A stretch of 64,000 nt of DNA from a virus: the IMG/VR virus record IMGVR_UViG_3300025728_000008, positions 1-64,000 of that record, one strand, 5' to 3'. The position numbers and the translations under genes are program-made. Below, piece after piece: positions 1,449-50,933 of this stretch (positions are counted from its first letter, which is position 1; every line of letters starts with the position of its first letter). A model generated the notes under the pieces. That model was not told the DNA's origin. It did not search any database and saw only the letters and a program-made list of their open reading frames with translations.

Positions 1449-2116
1449 TTAAAATTATCCTTTTATTAACTTCTTGGTTCTGCCACACCTTCCATACCTT
1501 TAGGGAATCTGTAATGTGAAACTTTATCTGGCATTATGTAAGTAGTATAGTCTATATGTGCATTTTCCTGCACGATAAAAACATCATCTCTACACATCAT
1601 ATCTAATATTTCTCCAACATTTTTTGCCCAACACTTCAATACTGTCCCATTCACTAATACAATTTCATAAATCATATAAAATCCTCCTTTATAAAATGTA
1701 GTTTTTATTCACTAAATTCTTTTACAAATACATCATAAAATTCTTTACTAACTTCTTGTTTGCTTGTGCTACCCCAATCATCTAATGCTAAATAATATTT
1801 CCCATCAGACTCATAAACATGTACAGTTCCATAATAATTAGACACTAATGTATAAACACTCATATTATCAATCTCCCTCTTCTTCTTCAATAAATTCAAA
1901 TGAATCATCGTCAAGGTCTATAATCACATTACCAGATTCAGAAGCTACTTCTACAATTCTATCTGCTCTCCAAACCTCTATAACCTCATAATATTCATCT
2001 TTAATCCAACGAAATGTATCATCTTCAAATATATCCTGCAATGCTTTTACATGTGTATAGACTGCATATTCATCACGTAACTCCATTGTATCACCCTTTA
2101 TAAAATGTAGTTTTAT
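1449..2116. repeat. array of 3 ATAAAA-N5/6-TTTTAT sites (1449-1466, 1691-1708, 2100-2116)
   Basis: TTAAAA-TTATCC-TTTTAT, ATAAAA-TGTAGT-TTTTAT, ATAAAA-TGTAG-TTTTAT; each overlaps a stop codon and precedes an SD. Confidence 0.8.
1466..1675 (-). CDS. small hypothetical protein (cassette-like, flanked by sites)
   Basis: SD AAGGAGG; stop overlaps site 1449-1466. Confidence 0.7.
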   Translation of the reverse strand: MIYEIVLVNGTVLKCWAKNVGEILDMMCRDDVFIVQENAHIDYTTYIMPDKVSHYRFPKGMEGVAEPRS

Positions 2117-2351
2117 CCCCTTGCTAACTGTTCAATAAACTCCTGTATGCTAACCCCTTCTGATTCATCAAACCAATCCCCCACCACAATTCTCAAATCT
2201 AGAGAGCATTCTACACTCCAGTTCGCTCCCTCTCCCCAATATAAACTTAGAATTTCATTGATTAGTTTATCTTTATCAACTATTACATCTCTATATGGTA
2301 CATATTTGACTCCATCAATATAAACTTCTTTTGCCATATTATCGACCTCCA

Positions 2352-2753
2352 TTATTTACCATTGCTTGTTTGTAAGTCAATATCTGGCACAATTGCTTCT
2401 GGTCTGAATAACACTTTGTAATGGTATGCACTCTCATATTTTGCATCAGTTTGCTCAATAAAGTAAGTCACATTATCACTCAAACCAAGATAATGCTTCT
2501 TATATTGTCCTTCACCAACTTTGCAAGTTACAGAAATCTTCTTGCTGTCACCTGCATCAAGCGCACATAACCCCTCAATTGACAGTAAATACTTATCAGT
2601 AATACCATTAACGAATACTACTCTACGTTGTACTTCAAATGAATCTGCTGATTTAGATAAATTTTCTGAAACTGTATCCGCTTCTGTTCCACAACCTACT
2701 AATCCTACAATTGCCATAAGAGATAATAAACCTGCCATTAGTTTCTTTTTCAT
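2352..2753 (-). CDS. phage lipoprotein
   Basis: signal peptide with lipobox LVGC. Confidence 0.75.
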   Translation of the reverse strand: MKKKLMAGLLSLMAIVGLVGCGTEADTVSENLSKSADSFEVQRRVVFVNGITDKYLLSIEGLCALDAGDSKKISVTCKVGEGQYKKHYLGLSDNVTYFIEQTDAKYESAYHYKVLFRPEAIVPDIDLQTSNGK

Positions 2754-3393
2754 ATTATCATTCTCCTTTATGTTTTATTTTAGTTGTAATCTGGAATATA
2801 CTTGCCACTAAACATTGACATATGAAACTCACATACATATTTATGATTTTTATTATCATAGATTAAATTAGGATTACCTTCTGCTGTAATTTCAAAATCA
2901 TACTTCTCAGATAGTTCTGTTAATTCTTTGAGAAAAGCTTCTACTTTCTCTTTTTTATCCATAAATTACATTCCTCCTTGAAGCATGAAAAACTCTGTTA
3001 CAGATAATTCAGAAAGTTTCACACGACTTAATGGTACTTCTGTTATACGTCTAATTCTTGAAAACCTATCTTTCATTTCATATTCTGTCTTTTCAGCTAA
3101 AGATTTTTCTATATCTTCATCATCTTTAGCTAATACAATCACACGATTCCCACTGCTTCCACCTATATCATAAAATACTTCAAATGCTTTCATATTATCG
3201 ACTCCATTTCAATTTAAGTTTATCAAACCATAAACAAAATACTCTTTTACATCCATTACCATTATCATAGTATTTGTGAATGCAGATGATAGGCTTGCAA
3301 TGTAAATCCCATTGGTCTTTACGATGAATCTTATAATCTCCTATTTGCATCGGATTCCTCCTTTAAATAAGTTAGGGGATAAACCCCTAACTA

Positions 3394-4278
3394 TTATGTT
3401 CTATTTCGTAATGTCCAATTTGCATCTACAAGGAAGTTATTTAAATTATCATTGATAACATTGTTCTTGCCAAATGTCACATTATTTATTGAAGTATTAT
3501 AATTTTCTTTATTGATAATAAATTCCTTTACATCCCCTGCTTTAAATACTAACTCTTGTGTATCCCAATTAATTGAATTTAATGCATCAGTAATTGTCAT
3601 AGGCTCACTCCCAACGATTTCTTCTACTACTTCTCTGATAACCCATTTACCTTCATTGAATAAATGCGGTTTCAATTCTACTATTTGATTTGTATCAGCA
3701 TACTTTAATCCTTCAATATCGAAATAAATTTTTCTTCCTGTTAATAACTGTAAACAATACTTAGATGGTTGATTTTGACTCGATATAATCCAAGAAAGAA
3801 TACCAGAAAAATCAAATATTACATCCTCTGGTAGTGCTCCATCAGTATGTACAGGAGACTTGAAGTTTATATTATTACCCATAACATAATGTTTAACAAA
3901 CCATGCCTTGCTTTCAAATATGTCTTTGAATGTTAAGTTTTTGAAGTTTATAAGTTTTGTTCCAGTAATTCCTGTAGAAACAGTTACACTATAACTTGAC
4001 CCTCCAAAATCACCTTTAGCAGAATAAGCGTTTGAATCATTTACAGCTAAATTATATGCTTCTAAAAGTGTGTTCTGATTTTGTTTTACATCCCATAAAT
4101 ATTGCAATGTTTCATTTTTTAATTGGATTGATGTACCATCAGTATGATAAAGAAAATCATTTTGATATCCAATATCTTTCATTGTGACACTATCATTCGT
4201 AAAAAATTCCAATCCATTCTCATATTCGTTATATTGTGCTCGATTCAACAATGTTAAAAAATTCATTTTATCTGCCAT
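3394..4278 (-). CDS. hypothetical protein
   Basis: 294 aa ORF with SD AAAGGTGG, followed by GC hairpin at about 3373-3389. Confidence 0.75.
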   Translation of the reverse strand: MADKMNFLTLLNRAQYNEYENGLEFFTNDSVTMKDIGYQNDFLYHTDGTSIQLKNETLQYLWDVKQNQNTLLEAYNLAVNDSNAYSAKGDFGGSSYSVTVSTGITGTKLINFKNLTFKDIFESKAWFVKHYVMGNNINFKSPVHTDGALPEDVIFDFSGILSWIISSQNQPSKYCLQLLTGRKIYFDIEGLKYADTNQIVELKPHLFNEGKWVIREVVEEIVGSEPMTITDALNSINWDTQELVFKAGDVKEFIINKENYNTSINNVTFGKNNVINDNLNNFLVDANWTLRNRT

Positions 4279-4280
4279 AA

Positions 4281-5788: not shown

Positions 5789-5792
5789 TGAA

Positions 5793-6893: not shown

Positions 6894-6949
6894 ATAAAAT
6901 CAACATTTTATCCTGTATTTTGGGTTCAATATTTACCGTCTATAGACGG
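6894..6949. repeat. composite site: ATAAAA-N6-TTTTAT + 24 bp + CCGTCTATAGACGG
   Basis: core at 6894-6911, perfect 14 bp palindrome at 6936-6949. Confidence 0.8.
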
Positions 6950-18805: not shown

Positions 18806-19816
18806 TTATTTTGTGTAAGTTTGACGGATGATATCTAATGTCAAGAATCCTTTTAGATTGTGGTATGACTTCATATTAAATCGGTCTGCAACCACTTTTA
18901 GTTCATCTAAAGTAAGTTCTTCATCATTCATTTGTGATAGTAATTCATTTGCATAATAAACCATACCACTACGTTGTATAAATTTTGCAGTCAAACTTTT
19001 AATGCTTAATGTTTCTTTAATTACATCTAATCTTCTATAAATAACAAATTTGTCAGCAGGTTTATTTATATTGCTTTCATCTTTAACATTTGTTATAGAA
19101 GCTCTAATGACATAATCATTATCAATTAAATTTGTATATCTACCTACGTGTTCATTTTCCTCCATTTGACCATTTTTCTTTTCATATGTCTTTTGGTCAA
19201 TAGCTTCTTGAAGTAGGTCTAATGTGCGCTCATCAACTTCTAGATAACGTTGTGTATACTTTAATGGAAATCCATTATCATCTTCTTTTAATGTGTTAGT
19301 TAAGTGTATTCTACCGTTTGCCCAATCAATGTCAGACTTCTTTAGGTTTCGAATTTCACTCATTTGTTTGCCCCCAACACCGATGAATGATAATCTTAGT
19401 ATAACTGAATCTTGTGCATTCACACATCTGTCTTCATAACGTGCAAGCTGTTTCTCTGTCATATACTGTTCCATATTAGTTAGATACTTTTCAAAGTCAG
19501 TTGGCTTTAAGTCCTTTAAAACGTTATTCTTTACATATCCATGTTCAACACACCAGTTAAGGTAACTAGAGATAATACGACCATATGTTTCAGCAGTGTT
19601 TCTCGTGTTAGCCTTAAATCCGTATAATACTGTTTCCATTTCTTTTAATGAGAAGAAACGAATTTCTTTGTTTAATGATTCCTCGTGTGGTTTAGCATAC
19701 TCGAATATACGTTTATAACTTTTGGCAGTTGACTCGGCAATCTCACCTAAAAACTTCTTCTTTAGATTATCCTTATCAAATAAAGAATTATCATTTATGT
19801 TTGTCATGGCTGTCAT
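18806..19816 (-). CDS. tyrosine-recombinase-fold protein, probably non-catalytic; YopR/MrpR-like master repressor
   Basis: SAM-like N-terminus (STAKSYKRIF...GRIISSYLNWC); box I reads IGVGGKQMSEIRNL (no TGxR Arg) and box II reads KFIQRSG (no HxxRH); start set by SD GGAG. Confidence 0.7.
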   Translation of the reverse strand: MTAMTNINDNSLFDKDNLKKKFLGEIAESTAKSYKRIFEYAKPHEESLNKEIRFFSLKEMETVLYGFKANTRNTAETYGRIISSYLNWCVEHGYVKNNVLKDLKPTDFEKYLTNMEQYMTEKQLARYEDRCVNAQDSVILRLSFIGVGGKQMSEIRNLKKSDIDWANGRIHLTNTLKEDDNGFPLKYTQRYLEVDERTLDLLQEAIDQKTYEKKNGQMEENEHVGRYTNLIDNDYVIRASITNVKDESNINKPADKFVIYRRLDVIKETLSIKSLTAKFIQRSGMVYYANELLSQMNDEELTLDELKVVADRFNMKSYHNLKGFLTLDIIRQTYTK

Positions 19817-19985
19817 AGTGACCACTCCTAACTCTTGATTTTAGTCTTATTATATCCCCTTTTTCTAAACATATACCCTCTTTGTTACACATTTTTATCT
19901 TAACATTGATGTCGAATCATGTCAAAAAATTTAAGGTGGCAAAAGTTGCCTTTATAGAGGATATTTATTGTATGTTCATTTCTGG

Positions 19986-20041
19986 ATAAAAGTGCAGTTT
20001 TATCAAGATATTAAGAGTGTCATTTTATCCTTTATTGACGG
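19986..20041. repeat. composite site upstream of the YopR-like gene
   Basis: ATAAAA-GTGCAG-TTTTAT at 19986-20003, 24 bp, then TCCTTTATTGACGG at 20028-20041. Confidence 0.7.
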
Positions 20042-20101
20042 TACTTTTGATGACCTCTTATTTACTACTTAATTATATCATTAATTTTTTGGGCTGTCAA
20101 C

Positions 20102-23138: not shown

Positions 23139-24751
23139 GACTTCCCTCCTAAACGGTCAACCATTTCTGGATACTTCTTCATTAAACGTCTAAGTTCATT
23201 TTTTTCATGGTCTTGTTCTAGCTTCTTATAATAAGCACTTCTTTCTGCTTCTTCTTTTTCTTTTTCTGCTATTCTTTTGTTTAAGTCTTGAATTTTTGCA
23301 TCATCATAGAAATACTCAATTGGAATTTTTATAGTGTCATCACAAGCATCTCTAATTGTAATGTGACTATCATCTACACTCCACAAATAGTCTCCAGAAA
23401 TAAAATCATATTTGTGTTTATAGAGTTTGTTTAATTTTCTTGAAATATCTTCTGCTAATTCCATAAAGTCTTCAAAATTATCAATTAACCATTGTATTTC
23501 TTCTCTTGTAAACTGTTTTCTCATATAATCACAACCCCTTATTTATAATTGTCATTCTATCAGCTAAAAACTTTAATTGCACATCAATTGCACCGTCAAG
23601 AAAATCAACACAATCTCTTCTCCATCCTTGCCGTTTCTTTCTAACTTGATAGCTTAAATACTTCTCTACAAATTTATAATTATCCTTTTGCATCTTGTCA
23701 GAGAAATCAATTGTTTGTTTATAGATTCCTAGTAAGTGGCTAATCATATCCATTCAATCACCCTCCTATGCTTTTGAATCATAGAATAATGACCCATAAG
23801 AATATCGTTTAACGTTGTTTGGGTCTTCAAAATATTCTTTTGGATTTTCAAACTCTTCAATACGTTTACGACTTCTCATATAGATAGTTGCGTTCCTCGT
23901 GAATAATTTAGATTTAAGCATATAATTCCATCCTCGCCCTAACTCAAATCTAACTATAGGAATCCAATAACCTTCTTCACTCTTAATTACTAATGATGTT
24001 CCATTTTTAGATAATCGTCCAAAGTATGCACGACCTTCATAAAATGTTGCTTTACGCCTAAACATATCTTCATTTGCTGTAAATACATATGCTTCAATCA
24101 TTATCTCAACCCCTTAACTGTTCCAATTTTAACTGTCTTTTCAACTTTGACAACTCCTACTGGAAGTGAAGATACCCAATAATCAAACTTTCCTGTATTG
24201 TTTTTCATATGGTTACCTTCTGCTACAGCAATATCATATGTATCATACATATCAGCATCATCTACTGATTCAGTAGTAAATACATCAATTTCTCTATCAC
24301 CAGTTTGTACTGTATGTATATAATTACCATTTTCCGCAACAATAGCATATCCTTCAATTAAGATAACATCGCTCATTAAACCACCTCACAAGTACTTATT
24401 TTAGTTAATTCATAACCTATTAACATTGGATGTGCTTCGAAATATGCAATTAATGTTTCATCATTCTCAAAGTATAACATTCTCCCTTGGTCTGGAGATA
24501 TATCTCCTGCTGTATGTAAAGGTACTAATCTATAAAACCCTTCTCCTTCTATAATTTGCATAATATCATCCTCCTTAGTAATAAGTATATCATTATGTTT
24601 AGTGTTTGTCAACGGTTTTTTATGAGTTTAATATTTCTCGTATCTCTCCTGCACAAACTGATTCATCATCCCACATACCACTAATCAATTCTTCAATCTT
24701 TTTCAATTTTTCTTCTGCTGTCATATTATCATCCTCCATAAAAGGGAAATT

Positions 24752-24910
24752 TTATACATCATAAAAAGTTATGTTTGCAACATTCAATCCTAATTCAGCT
24801 ATCTTATGTGCATTAATCATATCTTCTAATGTATATTTGTGGCGTAAATTAGGATTCTTATCTCCATCGCAAATATTTATTATTGTCATAACAAATGTCA
24901 ATGTTGTCAC
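24752..24910 (-). CDS. 52 aa cassette-like ORF not in the ORF track
   Basis: GTG start after GGTGGTG SD; TAA inside site 24738-24755. Confidence 0.55.
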   Translation of the reverse strand: MTTLTFVMTIINICDGDKNPNLRHKYTLEDMINAHKIAELGLNVANITFYDV

Positions 24911-24945
24911 TCTATCACCACCACCTTTATAAAAGTAAGATTTTA

Positions 24946-25110
24946 TTAGATTTCTTCAACTTGTGTTACTTCTACTTCCCCACTATCAATTTCATATTCT
25001 CCTTCAAAATCTCCATTCTCAACCATTTTCTCTGCATCATCTGGAGACTCGGCTTTCACTGTGACTTCCTTATAAATTACCTCTTTATAACTTACTGTAA
25101 ATTTTCTCAT
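24946..25110 (-). CDS. 54 aa cassette-like ORF not in the ORF track
   Basis: MRKFTVSYKEVIYKEVTVKAESPDDAE...; SD GAAGGAGG; stop at site 24929-24946. Confidence 0.65.
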   Translation of the reverse strand: MRKFTVSYKEVIYKEVTVKAESPDDAEKMVENGDFEGEYEIDSGEVEVTQVEEI

Positions 25111-26237
25111 TTATATTCCTCCTTCATAAATTAAGATTTTATTCTATCACGTTATCTTTCCACCATTTAGAATCTTTAAATTCTGGTTTAATAATCTGAA
25201 TGACTTCATTCCTATTTTTATCCGTATCAGCAAAGTCATTAAATCTAAGGACAAACTTCATACGGTCTTTCATTTCATCACAACATTTATTTTCTGCACC
25301 AATTCCGCATTTACATTGGTCTTTGTGGATAAATCCTTGACCACCTTCTTTAGCATAACAGAAAGTATAATCTTCAATGTTCGGCAATTTATCTCGAAAA
25401 CTCATAATATCACTCCTTAATCTATATCTAATTCTTTCAGAGGTAATTCTCCTACATATCTTATCGTAGAATACACACTATCACCATTTGCAATTTTCTT
25501 CAACAAGCTATCATTAGGCATTGGTATAACAACTAAATCTTCCGCACCTTTTAAATTACCTCTTCTAAGTCCTGCATTTATGATTGATTGTGCTCGACCT
25601 TCTGTTGTATAAATCTTGTCAAAGACAACTTTTCCTGTATTTTTATCAACAACTAAAAATCCACTCATAATCGTTTCATCCTCATTTCTATTGGAAAATC
25701 ACATGGACGAATACCTTTCAGTTCATTGTGAATATTCCATTTTTTCTTATGTCCATCCCAAATCATTACATCATATCCTAATTCATCTAATGTTCGTTTA
25801 TCATCTGTTGTAGAGTAAGGGTCACAACTCCATTTTTCAAGTGATAAATCCTCTGGTATTTGCACTCTAAGAGCGCTATAACCATGATATGATGGTTTGA
25901 TATTATTCGCACCAATCAAGCGAAAATCACCTATCTGGTCACTCCCTAATGCTACTCCATTTGTAATGTATCGGTATTTTTTACGTGGCATATAATCACC
26001 ATCCTCTTTTTCTATCAGAATAATCTAATGACCATAACATAAATGTTAACATGAAGAATATTCCTAAAAACATTAGTATTATTCCCCATCCTAAACCAAT
26101 ACTTCCTGTTGTAACAATGTCAGCGAAACCTAAAGGTAGAAATAATAAGAATGTAGACATAAGCAACATTCCCATAACCTTCAAAGATTGGACTATGTAT
26201 TTCATAGTCTCACCTCCTTCATGTTTGTAAAATAATG

Positions 26238-33783: not shown

Positions 33784-33814
33784 TATACCACTCCTTTATA
33801 AAATTGAGTTTTTA

Positions 33815-33973
33815 TTAAAATAATCCACCATTACTACCTTGACCTCCATCATCCTTACCTGTACCACTGTCATCTCCACCTTTGGAGAAACATAACCAAG
33901 TTAGGATGATGAGAAATATTCCAAGTATTGTATAAATGATACCTCCTAATATTAAACCCCATATTGGATACAT
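33815..33973 (-). CDS. 52 aa membrane peptide, cassette-like, not in the ORF track
   Basis: MYPIWGLILGGIIYTILGIFLIILTWLCF plus Gly/Asp tail; SD GAGGTG. Confidence 0.6.
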   Translation of the reverse strand: MYPIWGLILGGIIYTILGIFLIILTWLCFSKGGDDSGTGKDDGGQGSNGGLF

Positions 33974-33998
33974 AATATCACCTCATAAAAGTAAACTT

Positions 33999-34157
33999 TT
34001 ATTCACCAAATTCTTTTCTATTAACATATAGAATATTATCACAAAGTTCATCAAAACATTTAATGCTACAAATACTTCCATACGCACTTCCAACAATATC
34101 CTCATCTTTTTCAGCAACTATTGTTCTTTCACATACAGTACAAGTTCCTTTTACCAT
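33999..34157 (-). CDS. 52 aa Cys-rich (Zn-binding) cassette-like ORF, not in the ORF track
   Basis: MVKGTCTVCER...ICSIKCF; SD AAGGAGG. Confidence 0.6.
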   Translation of the reverse strand: MVKGTCTVCERTIVAEKDEDIVGSAYGSICSIKCFDELCDNILYVNRKEFGE

Positions 34158-34189
34158 ATAAATTCCTCCTTGTTAAAAGTAAAATTTTA

Positions 34190-34393
34190 TCAATCTTCAT
34201 AGATAGAAACAACTACCTTTACCCTTTTCCCATTGTATTCTTCTAACAAATCCCCTAAATCTGCACCGTCATCTCCTATTATTTCGTGCCAGATATATCC
34301 ATAATGTTCATTGTCTCTGACAGTACCAACCATGACAACTTGTTCTGTTCCAGATGAATCCTTACCTATATGATAGCTCTTTTTATTTTTCAT
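34190..34393 (-). CDS. small hypothetical protein, cassette-like
   Basis: flanked by sites 34173 and 34410. Confidence 0.7.
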   Translation of the reverse strand: MKNKKSYHIGKDSSGTEQVVMVGTVRDNEHYGYIWHEIIGDDGADLGDLLEEYNGKRVKVVVSIYED

Positions 34394-36499
34394 ACAATCA
34401 TCTCCCTTGTTAAAATTAAGATTTTATTTACCAAACACCTAACAAAACACATACCCATATTAAACATGCACAAGACAATATATAACAGACAACACTTATA
34501 ATATTTCTCATTAAAACACCCTCTTTCCAATTGCTTTCTCTATGTCTTTTCTCCATTCGTTGTAAAGTTTTGTGGCATATTTATCTAAACCTAATTCTTG
34601 TATAACTTCTTTCACGTGAATTTTTAATTTGTCATAAGTTTCCTCATCGTAATCAATCTCAATCTCAAAACTTTTAACTAAGTCTTCTTTGCTTCCTGTC
34701 TCGGAATAATCAAAATCTATATCATCAATATCTTGATTGATTGAAAAGACATGAAACAATCCTTTTTCTGTTGTCAAGTATCCACACAAACCACCAAAAG
34801 CAGGAGGTGAAAATCCTCTTTCTTCCCATTTTCTCATAAGCATCTCTCCTTTGTATAAGTTAATTATACTACATTATGATTCTTTTGTCAAGCGAAAATT
34901 TTTAGACTCCGTATTTTACTAAACTACGAATTTCATCTACTGCTTTTGGATGTGCTTCTTCACATTGTTCTAATTCTTGTAAAACCTCTTTTGGAGAATA
35001 TCCTAATGAAATAGCTTCATTGAATGCATCTATTGTTTCTTGATACGTCATAGAATCATCCCATTAATCTTGCTTAATCGTTCTTCTAATGTCTCTAGGG
35101 CTTCTTTAACTCTATCATTACGCACTTTATGTGAAGCATGTTCAATATCTCCTTCAAACTCTGTATAAGCTCTAAGCTTGTAATTCATTCGTTGAATCAT
35201 TTTAAAAAGCACCATCACATCATTACCACTACGCTCATAAGTGTTGATAATGTTGAATAGCATAGCGTTATTTTCTTTACTTGCTTGCATTTTCATTTCC
35301 TGTACCTTTTTAGCAGTTTCGGATTCTGTTTGCCATTTGTCTTGTTCATACATACTCATTGAATCACCCCTATTTTACGTTTTTAAAAACTCCTTGCTCT
35401 TTCACATAATAATTATAAGTTGGTGCATATTTATCTACATAAGCCTGTGCATCATGACCATTATCAAACGATGTAATGTATGTAGAATCATTATCATCAT
35501 AATAAGCATCAAGCTTTTCAAATATACTGTAAATTGTTGCGACTCTAATAGTTTTCATTAAACCGCCCCTTTCACATATCGTCTAACGTATCTATAAACA
35601 TTATCACGTACTTCTGTATCATCCCAATCCCACTTCATAGCATCGTGATAGTATAATTCTTTAACGTTGATACCAATTTTAATTATTTCATCGTCACTTG
35701 GATTTTGACCTGTAATATCCTTATAACACATTACAATGATATCATTCATCGGCTTATCTTCTTCATTTTCTAAAGTATTCATGTATGCCAAAACCCAATC
35801 TAGCATATCGACTCTATCCATTTCTAATTCTTTTTCTAACTGTGTTCGAGTAGATTTAAGTTGTTCTTTTAATGTTTTCCATTTACCCATAACATCATCT
35901 CCTTATCTTAATTACATTTTATCACACTTCAAATCTTGTGTCAAGCGAATTATTTAATTACTTTTTCAAGTTTCTCAATAAAATAATTCAATGTATTCGA
36001 AACAGGGAAATCATAGGCTTCAAATGCTTTGTCTTTCTCTTCCTTCATTTCTGCTAAAATCTCCAGAATGCTTTCTGTGCTGTTTGGAGATAAGATAGAC
36101 CCTTTTGTATCATCAATCAACTCTCCAGAATCTATAACCTTATCTATCTCACTTCTCATGGAAAGTGCAGTGCTCTTGTATTTAACAAACACACTGTCAA
36201 TATCATTTTCATACTCATCATAGAATGCTAAAGATAAACCACTACCAATACCAGACCCACTTAACCCAATACGTACAGATGCACCTTTTTGTTTTATAAA
36301 CATTGGTGATAATTCATCATGAAATTTTTTACCCATTAGACATCTCTCCTTTTAATTTATTATTATATTCCTCTTGCATTTTTTTATCTTTCTTGTCATT
36401 ACCTAGTTCTCTACATGACCAACAATAAACTTCTGTTTCTTTTTGATTATACCAATCATGACACCATTTACATTTACACATTGCCATAAGCATTCCTCC

Positions 36500-36741
36500 A
36501 TAAAATCAGACTTTTATACAGATTTTTTAGCACCTCTAGGTAGTTTGCCAACTGTAAATGGCTTATTTAAATCTCTAGAGCATCTAAGCTCACCATTAAG
36601 ATTAACAAAGTAATAAGAGCCATCCATAATCACTTTCCGTTGGACTTGATGTATTTCTCCAAGATAATCAATTAATATAGTTTTCAATGTAGTTTCCATA
36701 GTTTTCATAGCATTACCTCCTTGATAATATGAGAATTTTAT
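36500..36741. repeat. pair of palindromic sites bracketing ORF 36514..36708
   Basis: ATAAAA-TCAGAC-TTTTAT and ATAATA-TGAGAA-TTTTAT. Confidence 0.75.
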
Positions 36742-38481: not shown

Positions 38482-38978
38482 ATAAATCTAAAATTTTATC
38501 AATAACCAAACAATTCTCTACTAACCTCTTTAAACCCTTCTTTTTCAAGATGGCTTTTATAAATAGTCCATTCATTGCTAATGATTCTCTTGTTTGCATT
38601 GTAATGGCTACAAGTTAGACTATTACCATTATAACCAACATGTAATACGATATATGCTGTTGTATATCTTTCTGTATCTTGAGACAATACAAAGGTTTGA
38701 CCTTCTTTCAAAGTCTCATTCTTGAATTTGTTTACAACATCTAATAATATCATAACATCACCCTTTCATAAAACAATCCTTTTATCATTCTTTATATTCA
38801 AATATTGTCATAGTAAGTACGTTTAATTTACTAAAATCAACTTTCTCCAATAGTTTAACCATTGCTTTCTGTTTATCTTTAGCTTCAACATACTCAATAT
38901 CATATCCACCATTAACAGTTGCAAAAACAAATTTATAAGTATTCATAATATCTCCCCTTTATAAAAGATTTCTTTTAT
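38482..38978. repeat. array of 3 palindromic sites (38482, 38768, 38961)
   Basis: spacers CTAAAA, CAATCC, GATTTC; one ORF per unit. Confidence 0.8.
38785..38946 (-). CDS. 53 aa cassette-like ORF not in the ORF track
   Basis: MNTYKFVFATVNGGYDIEYVEAKDKQKAM...; SD AAGGGGAG; TGA overlaps site 38768-38785. Confidence 0.65.
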   Translation of the reverse strand: MNTYKFVFATVNGGYDIEYVEAKDKQKAMVKLLEKVDFSKLNVLTMTIFEYKE

Positions 38979-41548
38979 CTATAGATAATCAATCAATTTT
39001 ACATCTTTATTCAACATGTAATTCCCTTTGTAATCTATACCAATGATAGGATTGTTTTTATTTTGCATAGAAATAATATTGTCAATAAATTCTTTCTTTG
39101 TTTTGGTACTTCCTAATCCAACTAAGTATCCAACTTTACGTAAATGAGATATATCAATTCCTTGTATCTTATTATTCGGATACATTCTATTAAGATAAGC
39201 TTTCCTTTCTTCTTTATGCTTCTGATAATCTATTTGCCATTGCATCATATACATTCCTCCTATTCGATATCTAAATAAGAATATTGAACTATTCCAGACC
39301 AACAGACAGTATCCATTCTTATATCTGTAAATGTATCGTTTGTAAAGTGTATTCTCACTACCAAAGGCTTCCCCTCTGGCGAGTGGTGCGTTTCTTCTAC
39401 TTTTTTAATAGTAAACCCTTCTGCTAATCTCAAAGCCATTATAGGTATCATATAACCCCTCCTAATATTTGCTTGCTAATCTTATCAGATACACAAATCC
39501 AAGAATACATAGAAGCTTGACAATGTTTATCATTGATTCCATTTAATTTTGTCACATAATGTATAGAATATTGTTAGTTCTGTTTGGGTTAATAATTTAC
39601 CTTCATTCAATTTCTTCCAATCTATAATAATATTATCTCCATCCACTTTATAAGTTTTCTCTTCCATACAATCACTCCTTTTGTTCTTCTATTATCTTAA
39701 TAGCTATTTCTAAACCCCTCATACAACCACTCTTTTTAGTTGTATGAGGTAATTGTCTAAGTTGTGCTTTTGCTAATTCCTCGTGTAATCTGAGAAGAAT
39801 TTCAACCTTACTCATTAATATGCAAATCCAATAACTTAGCTGTCAATTGCATAAGAGATTTTCTTAATTCATCAATTCTTTCCTTAATGCTTTCTTTTGC
39901 TCCCTCATGATGTACCCGTTTTAAATCTTGTTCCAATATATTTATTTCTGATTTTACTTCTCTTATCTTTAATTGTGTGTGATGGACATGAAATTGAAGT
40001 TGTTCTTCTGGCGTTAATTCTTCTACAGTTGTATCTACATCAATGAAGTGCAATTTAAACCATGAATCATCATCTTCACTGCTCACACCATGAGGATTTC
40101 CTTGTTCATCCCATGCATACAATTCTCCATCTTGAATGTATGAAGTGTATGTTTTTCCTTTAAGGAAATAAAATAAGTGTCGTGATGAACCAAGAGGGAC
40201 ATCTTTTATACATTGAATCATACTAGTCATTAACATTACCTCCTTTAGCTTCAATCATGGCTTCAATTTCTTGTTTCAAACCATCAATCCGAGTTACATC
40301 AATCATATCCATTTGACGATGTACACGAGGGTCTAAATCAGTCATTTCAGTAAGGTTTGCCAATGCATTATATACTGCTCCACTAGCATCATCCAATTGT
40401 TTCCATACCGTTTTTAAATTGTTTACAGTTTTATTTATACGTGTCATATACATTCCTCCCGATATTTAGGTCTCACTAGCACCCGTTTTGATAATTCAAA
40501 GCACCATACTTTGCCTTCTGGTGATTCTTTTGATATATACCATGTTTGTATTCTAAATTTATCTTCTTCAAGCTCTCTTGCTTTTTCTAAAGCCTTGAAA
40601 TAGCTTGAATCCTCGATTGTCACATCAATGACTTCATAAACTGTTTTAGTTATCTTCATGCAGTGATACCAACTGGACTTCCTGTTGATTCTAAATGTTT
40701 AATAGATTCTTTCAGAATGCGTTTTGCACTGTCATATACTACATTTCCTAGTGCTAGACTAATATAACCTTCCATACCATCTCCACCAACCCAATCATCA
40801 GCAGGTGATATTTCATAATCATAACCACCACATTCTAAAGTAACTTCCATTCCACTTTCTAACAACTCAACTGCTTCATCAAATGTAATCATAAACAACA
40901 TCCTCTCTTTTGTTGATATCTTTAGTATACTATATTCTTATTCTTCTGTCAAGCGAATTATGAATAATTTTCAACAATTGTATATTTATTTGCTTTTGCT
41001 TCATCAATAGCTTCCTGTTCTGTTTTGTAGTAAATAGTTGTCAGTTGGTTGTTTCTTCCTAATAGAGAGTAATTACGACCAGAATTGAAACAATAAATAA
41101 CATATCCTCTATGAGTTAATCTGATTTGTACTTTCATCAACATCACTCCTTATAATTTTAATAAAAGGTAATCCGTTTTTATATTTCCTTGAGCAATTGT
41201 TGTAATCGTGCGATTTCTTTTTTAATTACATCTCTACGCTCCATTTTTTCATTGTCTATAGTTCTTTCATTGCTATGTTCAAATGCACATTCTAATCCTT
41301 CTATGATTGGTTCTATTCCTGTTTCAGCTTGTAATCGTATTAATACCCACCCCATAGTACTATATTTTACAGTAGAAGAAATTGTAAAGTCTTTAGTTAA
41401 AGAGCATGTTTGTAAATAAGCTCCATGACCTTTTTCATTTTCAACATTGAAATAATCTTTGCCTTTACTTGTTATTTCCCACTTACTATTATTTAGAACA
41501 TGATTTAGTACCTCTGTAAACGTCATAAACATCTCTCCCTTTATCTTA

Positions 41549-41605
41549 ATAAAATTGTGATTTTATACAAATTTCTTAGGTGGCTAAAACCCCGTCTATT
41601 AACGG
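41549..41605. repeat. composite site
   Basis: ATAAAA-TTGTGA-TTTTAT at 41549-41566, 25 bp, then CCGTCTATTAACGG at 41592-41605. Confidence 0.75.
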
Positions 41606-43504: not shown

Positions 43505-45289
43505 TCGCAACACTCCATTCGATTGTTTGTTTTTGTTCTTACCTTTATTATACATTCTATTGTTTCTTTTGTCAAGCGACTTTTTATTTTTATTTCTTTT
43601 CATTAGCATCACGCTCCATTTTCTTAATTGTATAATCCATTTCCTCAATAGCATACTTCTGTGATGGTTTATGGAAAGAATAGTCTCTTCTCCAAGGTTG
43701 ACCTTCTTCACGTTTTCTTTCTTCCGTGATATATAGTCCTGCTGGCTCACCACGCTGACCACGGATACTCATATAAATTGTGCTTCTTTGCATTTCAGCT
43801 TTATAAGATAACTTTTCATTGATGAATACACGTATTGCAGGTTGGTCTCCATATGCATAAGTTTCTTCTACTTTATAACCATTTTTCTCTGCCCATTTAC
43901 GAATTACAGTGAACGTTCTTCTTTGTTTTGTCATTCAATCATCCCCTTATTTGTTATTAAGTTAATTATATCATTATTTTATGCTCTTGTCAAACACTTT
44001 ATGCATGATATATTTCAATTTCTCCATCATCTACCTTATAATTAACGTTCAATGTCTTTCTAACTGCTTCTGCACGTTTCTTAGCTTCTTTCTCTGTTCC
44101 ATACGTATTTAAATCAAAATACGTGTCGTCATCAGTCATAAAGTTAGATACGACTTCTACAATATAACCTTCTTCATCATTCTCATCATAATTATAAATA
44201 CGAACTGTTAAATCTTGCAAATTCTTTAACTTCTTCAACTTTTGTTTCAGTTCTTTCATACTCATATTAACTTCATTTTGTAATTTATCCACTTATATCA
44301 TCCTCTCTTTTGTTGTTACCCTTATTATACACCTATTATATTCTTCTGTCAAGAGAATTATGCCAGTTTATTTTTTATTTCATTTTGTTTTTCAAATGCT
44401 CTCTCATTCATTTCATTCATTCTTCTCCAATATTTATGGTCATCACTCATATTCCAATATTCATCTATATCACTAGCCCATTTGATTTCACTATACTCCT
44501 TCAACAATGCTAAAGCTTCTACATTTGATTTAACACGTTGAGGGTTTGGGTCAAGATTATCTCCATCTATTCTTTCTACATTTATAACATCATTTTCATT
44601 TTCAATTAAAACCTCTGCATACCATCCATAATCATAATCACAAATAGTTACAACAAGCCCACCATTATGATGATATTGAACATTACTAGGATGATGAGGT
44701 AGTTTATCTAAAAAGTTTAGAATTTTATTTTGTAATTCTTCTGTGTACTTCATGCCTGTTGCCTTTTCAACATATTCTAATGCTTCACGAACATTCATTT
44801 TAGCCATACAATCATCTCCTTATATAGTGTATTTAGATAATGTTAAAGCTTTCTTTTGAGCTGATTTAAGGCTCTTATATGTTCTGATAAACTCTCCATC
44901 TCCATCATATTCAACTTCTCCATGTCTAGCTCTTACTTTATGGAAATATAAATCATACTCACCATCAGTATCATCACTGCAAATTTCTACACAATGCAAC
45001 TCTTCAAGCTTCTGCTCAATGTTGTAGTCTTCTGTTTCAAACTCTTCATCATAAGTAATTTCAGTGTTTGGTTTGCGAATGAACGATTGCATTTGTTCAC
45101 AATCAAGACCTTCCCACTGAGTGTGACCATTATGTGTGATTTCTACTCTAAAGATTACATCTTCACAAATTGTATCTACTCTATATACATGAACTGTTGT
45201 TTTAGCCATTCGACCATCTCCCTTTGTTTTGTTACTCTTAGTATACACTATATTATATGCTCTTGTCAAGCGAATGTGATAAAAAATTT

Positions 45290-45309: not shown

Positions 45310-45315
45310 CTATGC

Positions 45316-47963: not shown

Positions 47964-48737
47964 TTAAAATGGACAATCTAAATCTTCTTGTGTTAATTTT
48001 AATGGCTCAATCTTTTCAGCTTCATCAGATTCCTTCATTATACTATCAGTTCCAAGTAAACAATCTATCCACAAACTTGATGGTCTAGTTGTATACTGTC
48101 TTGCATATGGACGTACTACAATTCCTTCTGGTGCTACTCTCATTTCTTCTGCTCGTATTGGTTCTATTGTTCTTGTTCTTGAAATTAATCTTAAATCTGG
48201 CAAATCTGGGATTGCATCAATGTATCCACCTATGTTTCTATGTCTTTCATTAGTTGTTACTTCTTCAATAGCTTGATTCAATTGCTCTTTTAATTGATTG
48301 ACTTCTGCATCTTCTGTAGTTTCTTCTTTTACCTCTTCTACTTCTTTAGGTTTTTTGTATGGTTTGATAATATCTACATTTTCTGTATCACGTATAACAT
48401 AGCTTCCCCAAACTGTGTGCCTTGCATGTTCTTTCTTTACTTTGAAGATATAATCACCTTCTCGGTATTCCTCAACGCATCTATCATTCACATTATCACC
48501 GTAAAACTCCCAACCTCTTTTCCATTGAATATATCCACCTTTACTAGTATATAATTCAATGTAATCTGATTCATCAACCATTTCTGTTTCACCTGCAAAT
48601 GTAAATACTCCAATTGAATATTGTGGGTCTTCCAATTTCTTTGCATATGTTTCTTCTACACTGCGTTTTGTATCAAAGAACTTACCAATCATCTCATCAT
48701 TTTTTACTAATGCATATGCTTTAATTTCCATTAACAT
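47964..48737 (-). CDS. hypothetical protein
   Basis: 257 aa; SD AAGGGAG; promoter at about 48777-48805. Confidence 0.7.
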   Translation of the reverse strand: MLMEIKAYALVKNDEMIGKFFDTKRSVEETYAKKLEDPQYSIGVFTFAGETEMVDESDYIELYTSKGGYIQWKRGWEFYGDNVNDRCVEEYREGDYIFKVKKEHARHTVWGSYVIRDTENVDIIKPYKKPKEVEEVKEETTEDAEVNQLKEQLNQAIEEVTTNERHRNIGGYIDAIPDLPDLRLISRTRTIEPIRAEEMRVAPEGIVVRPYARQYTTRPSSLWIDCLLGTDSIMKESDEAEKIEPLKLTQEDLDCPF

Positions 48738-48801
48738 CTCTCCCTTAATTGTTTTATTGTTTTTGTTCTTGTAAACAGTATATCATTAATTTTAATTTTT
48801 G

Positions 48802-49482
48802 TCAATCCTCATTTGAAACTTTACCAATTATTTTTATGTGGTGTGTTCCATCTGCTTGAATACTACCTCTTTGATAACCTGCTTTTACTTTATCCATATC
48901 AAGTTCAATAATATAATCACTTGTGCTAGGGCTTCTATTCTCTGTTTCAAAGAAGCATGAGACAGTACACCAACCACTTTCGATTAAATCTGCACCTGCA
49001 CTATTTACATATAATCTGATTCTATTTTTACTTACCATGAATTGTTTTAGGTCTTCTAAGAAATCCTGTCTATACTTTTTCTTTAATTCTTTTAGACTTT
49101 CATTTGTATATTTTCCTAAATTTCTAATTCTTGCTTTTGGTGCAATTTTAACTGTTGTACTGTTTGTTTTTTCTATAATATCTCTCTTGTCAATTTCAAT
49201 TTTTGTGTTCCATGTTTCGGGAATCTCTCCCCAACAATCTTCATAATTAGCATAAAAATGATGACCTCTTTTGTTATATCCTAATCCACAATCATCTGTC
49301 CATAATGTAATATATTCTCTTTCATCTTTACTCTCAATATGTGAGTACTGCATTTTGCCAATTGTGTATTCATCTTGAGATAATTTATCACTATATTTCT
49401 CTTGTAATTCTAATTGTGAGAAGAAAAACTGACTCATTTTCTTGTTACCTTTTTTAAGGAAATATGCATTTCTATTTACCAT
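48802..49482 (-). CDS. hypothetical protein (paralog of 37652..38305)
   Basis: shared N-terminal ~60 aa. Confidence 0.7.
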   Translation of the reverse strand: MVNRNAYFLKKGNKKMSQFFFSQLELQEKYSDKLSQDEYTIGKMQYSHIESKDEREYITLWTDDCGLGYNKRGHHFYANYEDCWGEIPETWNTKIEIDKRDIIEKTNSTTVKIAPKARIRNLGKYTNESLKELKKKYRQDFLEDLKQFMVSKNRIRLYVNSAGADLIESGWCTVSCFFETENRSPSTSDYIIELDMDKVKAGYQRGSIQADGTHHIKIIGKVSNED

Positions 49483-49598
49483 TTAACCAACTCCCTGTTA
49501 TTTGTTGTTAAACCAAGTATAGCATGTATGTGTATCTCTTGTCAAGAGATTGTTTTAAAAATATTTGAGGGGATTTTTCACCCCTCATTATGTATGTA

Positions 49599-50384
49599 TT
49601 AATTATGTAAAATCTCACCTATGTCCGCCAATCCACCTATTGCTTCAATTTGACCTAACATCATATCTTTATAACTTTCAAAATATCCTTGTGCTTCTTT
49701 ATGTAGTTTTTCATTAATCATTATTGCCATTGGATAGATAACTTCTTCATGTGTTTGGTATGTATCAAAATGTCTTCTAAAATCTAATTTATCTATGACA
49801 CCATATCCATATTGTTTCTTGTCAAATTCACCAAAATCAACTATAACTGGTAATCCTGTATGCTTATCAATCATAACGTTTCCGCTATGTAAATCATCTG
49901 GACTGAATCCTGCTCTCATTATATCTTTAATTAGTTCTTTATATACATGATTGAAACGGGTACTAACAAAATTATCAATCTTTCCACTTCTAACTTTGTA
50001 ACGATAACTTGATATAGTATATCCATCAACTTTACTCATTATGACTGCTTTTACTTCTTTATTGTGATGGAATACCCCGTATAAACGGGGCACATGTTCC
50101 AGATGTTGTAATTGCCCTAATACTGAAATATCATGACTGCGCCAATATCCATGTTGGAATACTTTAATCGCATAATCTTTATATCCGAAAACAATTGCTT
50201 GTGCCCCGTGACCTAATTCATCCCAATCATCTAAATTATCTCTTCCCATAACTGCATTTTCTAACTTGCTACATATATATTCAAAGTCATCTAAATTTAT
50301 GTTTGGATTTAATCCTTTAAATTGTAAGTTTCGCATTCTTTCATTTAACGGGTGGTTAATAATATAGTTATCATGTTCTCCCAT
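49599..50384 (-). CDS. Ser/Thr protein kinase-like protein
   Basis: LGHGAQAIVF, AIK, DLHSGNVM and IVDFG. Confidence 0.85.
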   Translation of the reverse strand: MGEHDNYIINHPLNERMRNLQFKGLNPNINLDDFEYICSKLENAVMGRDNLDDWDELGHGAQAIVFGYKDYAIKVFQHGYWRSHDISVLGQLQHLEHVPRLYGVFHHNKEVKAVIMSKVDGYTISSYRYKVRSGKIDNFVSTRFNHVYKELIKDIMRAGFSPDDLHSGNVMIDKHTGLPVIVDFGEFDKKQYGYGVIDKLDFRRHFDTYQTHEEVIYPMAIMINEKLHKEAQGYFESYKDMMLGQIEAIGGLADIGEILHN

Positions 50385-50877
50385 ATTTTCATCCCCTTTG
50401 TGCCAATTTGTGTTAAGGCTAGTATACTATTATTTTTTGTGCTTGTCAACTACTAACTGTAACTTTTAATCTATTATATAATTCGACACGTAAACAATTT
50501 ATTTCTTTATCACTTATAAACAATTGTGATGCATCAATGATTGACATCCCCATTCTTTCAATATCTCCTACATATAATTCATTGTCTAAGCCAATATTCA
50601 CCATATTCATTAACTGTAATGAAACCATACGATATTCTTTTGATTTTGTCATGAGCAACAACTCCCTTTGTTTTATAGTGTATCTTATGTGATTATATTT
50701 GATGTGTGACTTGTTAGGGGTATATTGTTTTAAAAATAGTATTTGCACCCAGATTTTTATCTGTTTTGAGCCAATAATATATGAATCTTTGTTTGGGGCG
50801 CAGGACATTCAAAAAAATACTCTCATTAAAATATTCGTTCGTTCCATGCCAATGAAACAATACAGGCGAAAACGTGG

Positions 50878-50933
50878 ATAAAATACGAATTTTATCAAGA
50901 AAAACAGGTGCAAAATGTTCCGTCTATTGACGG
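50878..50933. repeat. composite site
   Basis: ATAAAA-TACGAA-TTTTAT at 50878-50895, 24 bp, then CCGTCTATTGACGG at 50920-50933. Confidence 0.8.

Follow-up and report, generated by a model that had tools for sequence, protein, structure and literature searches.

The window, a 64,000-nt stretch of viral DNA (positions 1 to 64,000 of IMG/VR record IMGVR_UViG_3300025728_000008), contains a family of short palindromes, ATAAAA-N6-TTTTAT, that are more conserved in sequence than the genes they bound. We tentatively favor the view that these palindromes are putative protein-bound, barcoded linkers, which could allow genes to be exchanged in register.

Exact copies of the motif number 12 in the window against 0.16 expected from dinucleotide shuffles (0/100 shuffles reached 12), at the 12 positions given in the initial annotation. 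All 12 are intergenic, in keeping with its placement of the copies at gene boundaries. Allowing up to one mismatch yielded 20 sites (3.6 expected); five of the seven near copies reported earlier (1449, 34173, 34410, 36724, and 38482) were recovered at this threshold, while those at 2100 and 25126 differ by a shift or an indel. One-mismatch matches at 4254, 38066, and 56601 lie within or beside ORFs and are chance-like in appearance. Genes across 1-51.8 kb are on the minus strand. The whole 159-kb genome of the window phage holds 18 exact sites (0 for the reversed-pattern control), and 17 of these 18 are intergenic, so that the motif is nearly missing from CDSs. Ten further phage genomes (C30-3, pW2, Kirov, Nate, Thrax2, PBC2, FADO, BcoS-136, Geobacillus E3, and SPbeta) carry 13-30 sites each, with controls of 0-1. 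No prior description of the motif was found in the literature within reach of our search. In the best explanation, the site family would already have been present in the ancestor of a large group of siphophages of Bacillus and Geobacillus, which includes SPbeta-like and Tsamsa-like phages and E3.

The site is longer than initially described. Its full form is a 24-mer with two-fold symmetry, TTGATAAAA-N6-TTTTATCAA, and symmetric preferences extend beyond ATAAAA-N6-TTTTAT at T(-3), G(-1), T(+6), A(+11), C(+18), and A(+20), the last being present in 95/104 sites. Column preferences are symmetric both outside and inside the arms, and the consensus has a symmetric 9-6-9 layout with invariant spacing, in which only six bases per arm are strictly conserved. 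This is the geometry of a tyrosine-recombinase core site (a 6-8 bp centre flanked by inverted arms that bind the recombinase), as had been recognized earlier. On the coding strand most sites read stop-ATAAAA-N6-TTTTAT-SD-ATG with the stop codon inside or touching arm 1, in agreement with the previous reading (stop-ATAAAA-N6-TTTTAW-SD-ATG). Excess complementarity was absent at all 7 symmetric position pairs tested (no base-pair covariation), arm-2 mismatches are never compensated, symmetric flanks are non-complementary within individual sites, and predicted RNA hairpins are weak (mean MFE -2.1 kcal/mol, with several sites near 0). The missing covariation suggests that the symmetry serves a putative dimeric DNA-binding protein rather than a hairpin, and the most likely binder of the 24-bp site would be a phage-protein dimer.

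The sites fall into two classes, core sites and array sites (stop-site-SD). The array sites in the window form five clusters (1449-2100, 24738-25126, 33798-34410, 36500-36724, and 38482-38961), tandem arrays whose units hold one small SD+ORF, as described before. They are listed here without strand:

1449..1466, array site with barcode GGATAA; arm 2 is TTTTAA; barcode and relative position are shared by pW2, Kirov, Thrax2, C30-3, and PBC2
1691..1708, array site with barcode ACTACA; exact; ACTATA or ACTAAA in relatives
2100..2117, near-duplicate of the site at 1691 (G-ATAAAA-CTACA-TTTTAT); the pair 1691/2100 encloses two ORFs
24738..24755, array site with barcode TTTCCC; exact
24929..24946, array site with barcode TCTTAC; exact
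25126..25143, degenerate site (A-ATAAAA-TCTTAA-TTTAT), enclosing with 24929 the ORF at 24946-25110
33798..33815, array site with barcode ACTCAA; exact; seen also in relatives
33985..34002, array site with barcode GTTTAC; exact
34173..34190, array site with barcode TTTTAC; arm 2 is TTTTAA in the window phage, C30-3, pW2, and Nate, and TTTTAC in Kirov
34410..34427, array site with barcode TCTTAA; arm 2 is TTTTAA, an imperfection shared by relatives
36500..36517, array site with barcode GTCTGA; in five phages (ten pairs) flank homology is absent on both sides
36724..36741, array site with barcode TTCTCA; arm 2 is TATTAT
38482..38499, array site with barcode TTTTAG; arm 2 is ATTTAT
38768..38785, array site with barcode GGATTG; exact
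38961..38978, array site with barcode GAAATC; exact

Across six phages of three genera, array sites keep both their order and their spacers. There are about 13-15 such linkers, each of ~27 bp with its own invariant 6-bp spacer (the barcode), identically ordered in every phage, and the canonical barcode was present in 57/60 arm-detected array sites. PBC2, FADO, and BcoS-136 retain sub-series in the same order. The 18-mer at 33798 is identical in eight phages (the window phage, C30-3, pW2, Kirov, Nate, Thrax2, PBC2, and BcoS-136). The spacer had been called variable, which is true between sites, whereas each array spacer is constant across phages. Similarly, the confinement of mismatches to the SD-proximal arm holds in the window but not in relatives (GTAAAA and ATCAAA in Kirov, ATAAAT in pW2).

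The genes between the sites are mostly unrelated from phage to phage. Around shared 18-mers, DNA homology continues for 0-5 nt on the left side and, through SD-ATG, for 0-21 nt on the right, and most pairs of flanking ORFs have no similarity by blastp. The TCTTAC>TTTCCC slot holds six unrelated ORFs, one family for each of six phages; five families in five phages occupy each of the slots GGATTG>TTTTAG and GTTTAC>ACTCAA, and four in four phages occupy TTCTCA>GTCTGA. Nearly every single-gene slot differs even between two close relatives, the window phage and C30-3 (~88% nt identity). Between the window phage and Kirov, the proteins occupying slot TCTTAA>TTTTAC share 39% identity, against 18/18 and 17/18 matching positions in the 18-mers on either side; core proteins of this pair are only 63-72% identical. 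The proposal that the sites bound single small promoterless genes is supported, and the same ORF families (F38, F53, F56, F51, F13, F7, F12, and F87) recur at different sites in different phages, a positive outcome for a check suggested in the initial annotation.

Homology between relatives ends at the sites, conserved intergenic elements that flank ORFans and at which insertions, deletions, and replacements begin and end. The earlier expectation of gain and loss breakpoints at the sites was borne out to this extent; some boundaries instead fall at the start codon, outside the spacer (GTCTGA, window phage vs C30-3), and mosaic joints showed no excess at motif junctions over other gene junctions of the region (11/122 HSP ends vs 19/~126 junctions), crossovers within shared sites having no locatable position because the shared copies are identical. 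Multi-gene slots without internal palindromes are hypervariable too. Together with the lack of joint excess, this suggests that the region may be plastic by other means and that the sites may be merely conserved survivors. The start-codon boundaries are easier to reconcile with joints of homology-driven or illegitimate origin than with strand exchange in the spacer.

In the reading we favor, core sites would mark transcription-unit borders, with spacers free to drift, and in the hyperplastic early region the site would have become a linker by fusion to the stop codon (inside arm 1) and the next SD. The ordered linkers would delimit fixed sockets holding unrelated small early genes, and co-infecting or resident relatives could exchange genes within them. 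Lox sites recombine only when the partners have identical central regions; a comparable identity requirement would explain the site-specific barcodes. Spacer identity would force exchange in register. Gene order and expression signals would thereby stay intact while accessory genes turn over, and the exchange may also keep the linkers homogeneous across genera. The route may be site-specific, through the Xer-like enzyme of the tail operon (predicted to be catalytically intact), or short-homology recombination. The contrast between fixed array spacers and core spacers that drift or flip points to exchange. The movement of ORF families among differently barcoded slots is beyond what strictly in-register exchange can explain, and conservation of spacers through selection for exchangeability would be second-order selection, which is a weak argument.

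Core sites follow terminators, overlap one promoter, separate convergent genes, and precede the mrpR-like gene. Those in the window (again without strand), with the associated features, are:

6894..6911, core site with spacer TGTTGA, 24 nt after a terminator hairpin
6936..6949, minus strand, terminator-like hairpin CCGTCTATAGACGG upstream of site 6894
18806..19825, minus strand, MrpR/YopR-like protein of tyrosine-recombinase fold; Pfam and PDB matches identify it as a homolog of the SPbeta master repressor
19986..20003, core site with spacer CTGCAC, in the mrpR-like gene's leader, downstream of a consensus sigA promoter
20072..20100, minus strand, consensus sigA promoter (TTGACA-17-TATAAT), directed toward site 19986 and, beyond it, the mrpR-like gene
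41549..41566, core site with spacer TCACAA, ~21-25 nt after a terminator hairpin
41592..41605, minus strand, terminator-like hairpin CCGTTAATAGACGG upstream of site 41549
50878..50895, core site with spacer TTCGTA, 24 nt after a terminator hairpin; no SD directly follows
50920..50933, minus strand, terminator-like hairpin CCGTCAATAGACGG upstream of site 50878

Terminator-linked sites lie 20-25 nt or 5-10 nt after the hairpin; the stem at 6936-6949 covaries in relatives (CCTCTC/GAGGGG) and is followed by a U tract. In colinear conserved contexts the core spacers drift and even flip between phages: in C30-3 and pW2 the spacer of site 6894 is the exact reverse complement, TCAACA, with unchanged flanks. 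All six phages have a site 152-193 nt ahead of the mrpR-like gene, in every phage a site overlaps the -35 element of the tail-operon promoter, and another lies between convergent genes beside a bidirectional terminator.

The best candidates for putative binders of the palindrome are phage proteins of the tyrosine-recombinase fold, whose genes lie at 18806-19825, 73789-74847, and 99331-100323. The product of the first matches Pfam MrpR_N_CB (1.7e-23) and MrpR_C_cat (5e-14) and PDB 8A0A/8BJ6 (E ~1e-19). Among the proteins conserved in the window phage, SPbeta, E3, Kirov, and BcoS-136, these three are the only sequence-specific DNA binders. Two of them are probably non-catalytic. MrpR is a repressor of a non-recombinase family (PMC10516654), and in the YopP-like protein lysine replaces the box II arginine (HxxK) in all lineages. 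The tail-operon Xer-like enzyme retains RI, HxxR, H, and Y in the Tsamsa-like phages and has HxxK in SPbeta and E3, where the palindrome is conserved nonetheless.

Core sites resemble operators or insulators where they occur at terminators, in a promoter or leader, or at a convergent junction, and the operator or roadblock alternative raised in the initial annotation suits about a third of the sites (core sites at terminators, promoter, and convergent pair). It is conceivable, if rather unlikely, that all sites are purely regulatory operators, at which a dimer of a non-catalytic recombinase-derived protein (e.g., the YopP-like MrpR paralog) forms a stoperator-like roadblock or insulator. Such a protein would reinforce terminators, repress the promoter at 98228, autoregulate the mrpR-like gene, and block early-cistron read-through in lysogeny or late infection; mosaic joints would then merely reflect selection for intact genes and signals. 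The contexts of the core sites, their unconstrained spacers, the absence of joint enrichment, and the missing box II arginine are consistent with this account, and MrpR, which has ~10 sites in SPbeta, offers a precedent for a repressor derived from a recombinase fold (PMC10516654). However, it leaves the invariance of array spacers across genera unexplained while core spacers drift, gives no reason for a regulator site to stay put while both neighbors are replaced, and would make roadblocks every 190 bp in tandem redundant. SPbeta MrpR (YopR), from the same phage supergroup, is a tyrosine-recombinase-fold protein that binds the repeated intergenic SPBRE (Kohm et al. 2023, PMC10516654), and the window encodes its homolog with the palindrome in the leader. 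The SPBRE that we derived from the SPbeta regions upstream of yorE, yorM, yorZ, yosX, and yopV is a promoter-embedded, non-palindromic 15-18-mer, ACAAATAATATGTATAT, and the palindrome is a second, separate SPbeta repeat (13 copies). We therefore rejected the palindrome as the MrpR/SPBRE operator, its sequence being unlike SPBRE and most SPbeta copies lying away from the reported MrpR ChAP-seq peaks, which are at SPBRE promoters.

We regard as improbable a phage-specific promoter with only a -10 element, supplied by ATAAAA, that would place transcript starts in the spacer or arm 2 and would equip every small gene and post-terminator operon with a separate middle or late promoter. The T4 late promoter, TATAAATA, shares the ATAAA core; the order terminator-site-SD-gene at 151916, 139905, 6894, and 41549 and the short, fixed distance from site to SD would also suit a promoter. 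Perfect two-fold symmetry is unexpected for such an element, though, and at site 128962 neither strand offers a gene for it to drive. Strong sigA promoters stand upstream of some sites, inspection found no consistent sigA -35/-10 fit, and the window phage has neither a sigma factor match (PF04542) nor an SPbeta YonO-like RNA polymerase. An RNA element, with an AUAAAA-N6-UUUUAU hairpin 5' of the SD as a binding or processing site for a translational repressor or ribonuclease or as a ribosome-binding-site insulator, is likewise improbable: the constant stop-to-SD position in arrays would agree with it, as would the core-site spacer flips, through which the palindrome can act mutationally as a hairpin, but identical sites occur without a following SD and between convergent genes, and the lack of covariation, compensation, flank complementarity, and stability described above argues against it.

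Among known systems, the linkers appear most to resemble the 'regulatory cassette' PeSLs of T4, with the addition of tyrosine-recombinase core-site geometry. PeSLs of T4-type phages combine sigma-70 promoters and G+C stem-loops and are mutually similar (PMC2839356, Arbiol et al. 2010; PMC4122927, Comeau et al. 2014). Both are short conserved intergenic elements flanking small ORFans in hyperplastic early regions, putative exchange points for unrelated genes of related phages, often paired with a terminator stem-loop, and both keep the inserted gene's expression signals. Here, in contrast, the element is an AT palindrome with a centre fixed at 6 bp; each copy, fused to a stop codon and an SD, has an unchanging spacer of its own and keeps its place in the genome order. 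As to the sigma-70-type promoter and stable stem-loop of PeSLs, inspection of the site sequences found no sigA promoter inside the palindrome, the arrays sitting within operons run by ordinary, separate sigA promoters, and a G+C stem-loop accompanies only ~28% of sites. The single-recombinase Xer sites difH and difSL (PMC5357621) have the same core geometry as the palindromes, whose 9-11 bp inverted arms end in AAAA/TTTT. With dif, difH, difSL, and loxP with heterospecific spacers, the palindromes share imperfect inverted arms of ~9-11 bp that end in A/T runs, a 6-bp centre, and the location of a site near recombinase genes; they differ in number (13-30 per genome, not one), in the strict conservation of only six bases per arm, and in having some homology boundaries beyond the site.

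In cluster A mycobacteriophages, the immunity repressor binds stoperators, asymmetric 13-mers that point in the direction of transcription, and would there block elongation. Stoperators too are short sites in many copies in small intergenic gaps of operons of a temperate phage; we rejected this identity for the palindromes, which are symmetric and have position-specific spacers. The initial annotation, partly supported as a whole, had proposed an integron-like cassette system. Integrons share with the window arrays of single promoterless genes, recombination-site-like palindromes, and very high gene turnover. That identity was rejected: there is no IntI, attI, or Pc platform, no array is headed by a recombinase gene, and the sites are 18-24 bp long rather than folded attC sites of 60-140 bp (R''-L''/L'-R'). 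The sites are fixed in order and spacer, not cassette-bound, each holding its rank in the genome while the genes on both sides change.

The virus record is 159,412 bp long, the window being its first 64 kb (G+C 31-33%), and the closest relatives are C30-3 and pW2 (Joanripponvirinae), giant siphophages of the Bacillus cereus group, with Nate, Thrax2, Tsamsa, and Kirov more remote. Identity with C30-3 is ~88% across most of the genome. The early region, comprising the first 52 kb, is crowded with small ORFs, and the minus strand carries the genes at 1-51.8 kb. This region is driven by sigA promoters of consensus TTGACA-17-TATA[AC]T, of which there are 27 in the window (826-51842) and 46 in the genome (e.g., 20072-20100, 34863-34891, and 43965-43993); the copies are nearly identical, and their spacer is conserved (...AAAATAATGATATAAT).

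The palindrome ATAAAA-N6-TTTTAT (arm 1, spacer, arm 2) occurred 12 times exactly in the window against 0.16 expected, and at 20 sites with at most 1 mismatch against 3.6 expected. The whole genome held 18 exact copies and none of a reversed control pattern, values that rule out chance or a compositional artefact. All 12 exact window sites, and 17 of the 18 genome-wide, are intergenic. The plus-strand stretch at 53242-57128 contains none of the 12, with a single 1-mismatch match (56601). The sole non-intergenic copy (genome 108575-108592) lies within the tape-measure CDS and is retained in 6/6 Tsamsa-like phages; it encodes the peptide (N/D)KISILS(K/R)D, and its spacer changes fall at synonymous positions, so that it may be functional or may reflect no more than coding constraint. 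At the array sites, which form linkers between early genes, the coding strand reads stop-site-SD-ATG with the stop codon within or touching arm 1. A by-product of this stop-codon and SD context is ruled out, since the palindrome stands without stop or SD at 128962, 98228, 50878, and 19986. The initial annotation had described a real motif at gene boundaries with this order, which is borne out, the order applying to the array sites. It had also called the spacer variable, which holds between sites but not for a given array site, whose spacer, or barcode, is kept across phages: 57/60 array sites found by their arms alone had the canonical spacer, and arm imperfections were shared too.

Within the hyperplastic stretch of early genes, every such site falls into one barcode series, GAAATC-GGATTG-TTTTAG-(TAAGAG)-TTCTCA-GTCTGA-TCTTAA-TTTTAC-GTTTAC-ACTCAA-TCTTAC-TTTCCC, followed farther along by ACTAYA-TGATAC-GGATAA. 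Our phage, C30-3, pW2, Kirov, Nate, and Thrax2 all share this order. Parts of the series, likewise in unchanged order, occur in PBC2, FADO (host B. subtilis), and BcoS-136 (host B. cohnii), and Tsamsa has a GTCTGA site in yet another context. The motif is ancient within this phage group. Array linkers (about -3 to +24), spacers included, are far better conserved than their surroundings. Near-duplicate sites flank single genes at 25126/24929, 2100/1691, pW2 ACTCAA/ACTGAA, and Kirov TAAATC/TAAATA. An IMG/VR scan with one barcode recovered Tsamsa and a single related fragment among matches that were mostly fortuitous, in AT-rich viruses without relationship to these phages. The literature searched on Tsamsa-like and SPbeta-like phages held no description of the motif.

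The genes between these linkers differ from phage to phage. Around identical 18-mers, DNA similarity reached no further than 0-5 nt on the upstream side and, taking in the SD up to the ATG, 0-21 nt on the downstream side, and the flanking ORFs were mostly unrelated (blastp 1e-3). At GTCTGA, all ten pairs among five phages lacked similarity on either side. In a given single-gene slot, named here by its flanking barcodes, almost every phage had a family of its own, and this was so even for our phage and C30-3:

Gene families in single-gene slots
TCTTAC>TTTCCC: 6 families in 6 phages
GGATTG>TTTTAG: 5 families in 5 phages
GTTTAC>ACTCAA: 5 families in 5 phages
TTCTCA>GTCTGA: 4 families in 4 phages

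Where our phage and Kirov share a slot gene, the two copies are 39% identical, the flanking 18-mers match at 18/18 and 17/18 positions, and core proteins of the two phages are 63-72% identical. ORF families also recur in different slots across phages:

ORFs found in different slots
CKCKWCH zinc-ribbon ORF: after GTCTGA in our phage, before TTCTCA in C30-3
MKMFLLYISYPYEGG ORF: after ACTCAA in pW2, after GTTTAC in Thrax2
KELYSNCYTCRKG ORF: between TCTTAC and TTTCCC in pW2, before TCTTAC in Nate
BcoS-136 ORF after ACTCAA: matches the C30-3 ORF after TCTTAA
133-aa putative lipoprotein gene: window 2352-2753 (minus strand), pW2 140573-140983, C30-3 about 71460-71801

The last is a clear case of relocation inside the early region. 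In pW2 and C30-3 the gene adjoins the TCTTAC socket, and in our phage it lies ~22 kb off, among the ACTACA/GGATAA sockets. The initial annotation had asked whether the same ORF occurs at other sites, as these families do across phages. The integron analogy it drew fails as a classification: the sites are tied to positions, not cassettes, and attC, attI, Pc, and IntI are absent.

A second set of palindromes, the core sites, lies at terminators, a promoter, a leader, and between convergent genes:

Core sites
6894 (6894-6911), 41549, and 50878: 21-25 nt past a hairpin
151916 and orthologs: 5-10 nt past another hairpin
128962: between convergent genes, beside a bidirectional terminator; neither strand has a gene there to promote
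98228: overlapping a sigA promoter -35 (spacer TTGAAA, 17 nt, then TATAAT)
19986: in the leader of the mrpR-like gene, downstream of a consensus promoter

We considered the CCGTC...GACGG box beside the first three as a second protein site and rejected this for an intrinsic terminator, because the stem covaries in relatives (CCGTC/GACGG to CCTCTC/GAGGGG or CCCCTC/GAGGGG) and is followed by a U tract. In the hairpins at 6936-6949, 41592-41605, and 50920-50933 and their orthologs the loop C-WATA-G is kept while the stems covary between phages. The promoter at 98228 serves an operon whose last gene encodes a tyrosine recombinase, directly before the tape-measure gene, and a site 152-193 nt upstream of the mrpR-like gene is present in 6/6 phages. 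Core-site spacers showed no conservation between genera, and in three cases the spacer is inverted between phages with the flanks the same:

Inverted core-site spacers
Our phage 6894-6911, TGTTGA: TCAACA in C30-3 (90693) and pW2 (107)
C30-3 106188, CATGGT: ACCGTG in pW2 12028 (near-exact)
Nate 37695, CAGTG: CACTG in Thrax2 130014

These are flip-flop inversions of the palindrome centre, probably via template switching at a hairpin.

The conservation of array linkers against the drift of core-site spacers is what exchange between phages would be expected to produce if it were located in the linkers and dependent on their identity. We tentatively read the palindrome, at somewhat less than an even chance, as a protein-bound element whose barcoded, rank-fixed copies in the early region serve as linkers where related phages swap accessory genes in register. 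Exchange would take place within linkers and require their identity; those that still match would keep exchanging and homogenising, and hence would gain diverse neighbours, while sites not used for exchange would diverge with their lineage. The main rival, a purely regulatory operator or roadblock bound by a recombinase-derived repressor, is a rather unlikely account. Array spacers are conserved and core-site spacers drift in colinear, conserved DNA, the opposite of what a plain operator model predicts. The sigA promoters were uninformative as a control for "islands of identity", since nearly every promoter position is constrained. Four observations limit the linker-exchange inference itself. 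BLAST breakpoints showed no enrichment at motif junctions over other gene junctions (11/122 ends vs 19 of about 126 junctions), multi-gene slots are variable inside too, where palindromes are absent, some homology boundaries fall at the start codon (e.g., GTCTGA in our phage vs C30-3), and genes have moved between slots out of register. A more specific form, natural recombinase-mediated cassette exchange, is improbable. A late tail-operon, Xer-like tyrosine recombinase would join identical palindromes of co-infecting or resident related genomes, the rank-specific 6-bp central regions acting as heterospecific "lox variants", such that only same-rank sites recombine and single accessory genes could be swapped in register between genera without deletions.

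Ever since the modular theory of phage evolution was put forward, it has been disputed whether mosaicism arises at dedicated, conserved linkers or through random joints that selection then sorts. The linkers described here are unusually explicit, being short, symmetric, individually barcoded, and constant in order among phages whose hosts are of the B. cereus group, B. subtilis, and B. cohnii, with unrelated genes between them, and thus make the question directly testable. Genes for host takeover or anti-defence are the probable content of the sockets, which makes the sites an easy means of locating genes of this kind. Should a recombinase act on the sites, they would amount to a collection of natural, orthogonal recombination sites. 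Among known systems, the PeSL regulatory cassette of T4-type phages (PMC2839356, PMC4122927) comes closest; our linkers differ from it in being promoter-less, symmetric, individually barcoded, and conserved in rank.

That the palindrome is a promoter is very doubtful, given that site 128962 has no gene to promote on either strand. By inspection the spacings misfit sigA readings (TGnTAAAAT as extended -10, TTGATA as -35, TTTTAT as -10), the actual early promoters being the 46 consensus elements, located elsewhere; a PF04542 search gave no sigma factor match, and no homolog of the phage RNA polymerase YonO of SPbeta was found. An RNA element is marginally less probable still. Among 104 distinct sites from six phages, column preferences were symmetric outside and inside the arms, T(-3)/A(+20, 95/104 sites), G(-1)/C(+18), and T(+6)/A(+11), giving a full consensus of TTGATAAAA-N6-TTTTATCAA. 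Complementarity exceeded that expected from column frequencies at 0/7 symmetric position pairs, the arm-2 mismatches TTTTAA, TATTAT, and ATTTAT were never compensated, and RNA hairpins were marginal (mean MFE -2.1 kcal/mol), which rules out a selected hairpin. Because the preferences come without pairing, the sequence pattern is characteristic of a protein that binds double-stranded DNA as a dimer.

Of the host regulators considered (Fur, CodY, ComK AT-box, Rex, FNR, DnaA box, ArgR), none fits half-site and spacing together. The palindrome occurs in 13 copies in SPbeta, against 1 for the control, and in 17 in Geobacillus phage E3. In SPbeta (NC_001884) the copies lie at 2628, 12495, 24127, 39885, 44416, 57147, 95562, 99497, 111028, 113663, 116414, 128076, and 132746, at the ends of genes, downstream of terminators, and upstream of SDs; one is annotated only as "stem_loop", and the literature searched assigned them no binder or function. 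The palindrome is a second repeated DNA element of this model phage, besides SPBRE. Our phage, SPbeta, E3, Kirov, and BcoS-136 share replication and virion proteins and exactly three recombinase-fold proteins:

Recombinase-fold proteins
18806-19825: MrpR-like, 339 aa, Pfam MrpR_N_CB and MrpR_C_cat, PDB 8A0A and 8BJ6
Genome 73789-74847: YopP-like
Genome 99331-100323 (SPbeta 40301-41335): Xer-like

The first is a homolog of SPbeta MrpR/YopR, a master repressor that combines a tyrosine-recombinase fold with loss of catalysis and works by binding repeats called SPBRE (PMC10516654). We derived SPBRE from SPbeta sequence upstream of five reported MrpR targets as the promoter-embedded ACAAATAATATGTATAT, distinct from the palindrome. 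The conserved spacer of the window's sigA promoters resembles SPBRE as derived from SPbeta promoters (ACAAATAATATGTATATAAT), and these promoters are likelier operators of the MrpR-like repressor than the palindromes are. The MrpR-like protein as palindrome binder is made less likely by the difference from SPBRE and by most SPbeta palindromes lying away from reported MrpR peaks. The binder is probably one of the other two proteins, as judged by co-occurrence and by a geometry like that of the single-recombinase Xer sites difH (AGTTATGAAAA/6 bp/TTTTCAAACT) and difSL (PMC5357621). The YopP-like protein has HSFKK for HxxR, a lysine replacing the box II arginine in 6/6 lineages aligned, and may, by analogy with MrpR, be a second recombinase turned DNA-binding regulator. 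The Xer-like protein keeps the catalytic residues RI, HxxR, H, and Y in Tsamsa-like phages and has HxxK, with lysine for the box II arginine, in SPbeta and E3. Its gene lies directly upstream of the tape-measure gene in our phage, pW2, Kirov, Nate, Thrax2, BcoS-136, E3, and SPbeta, an odd and conserved location for a recombinase.
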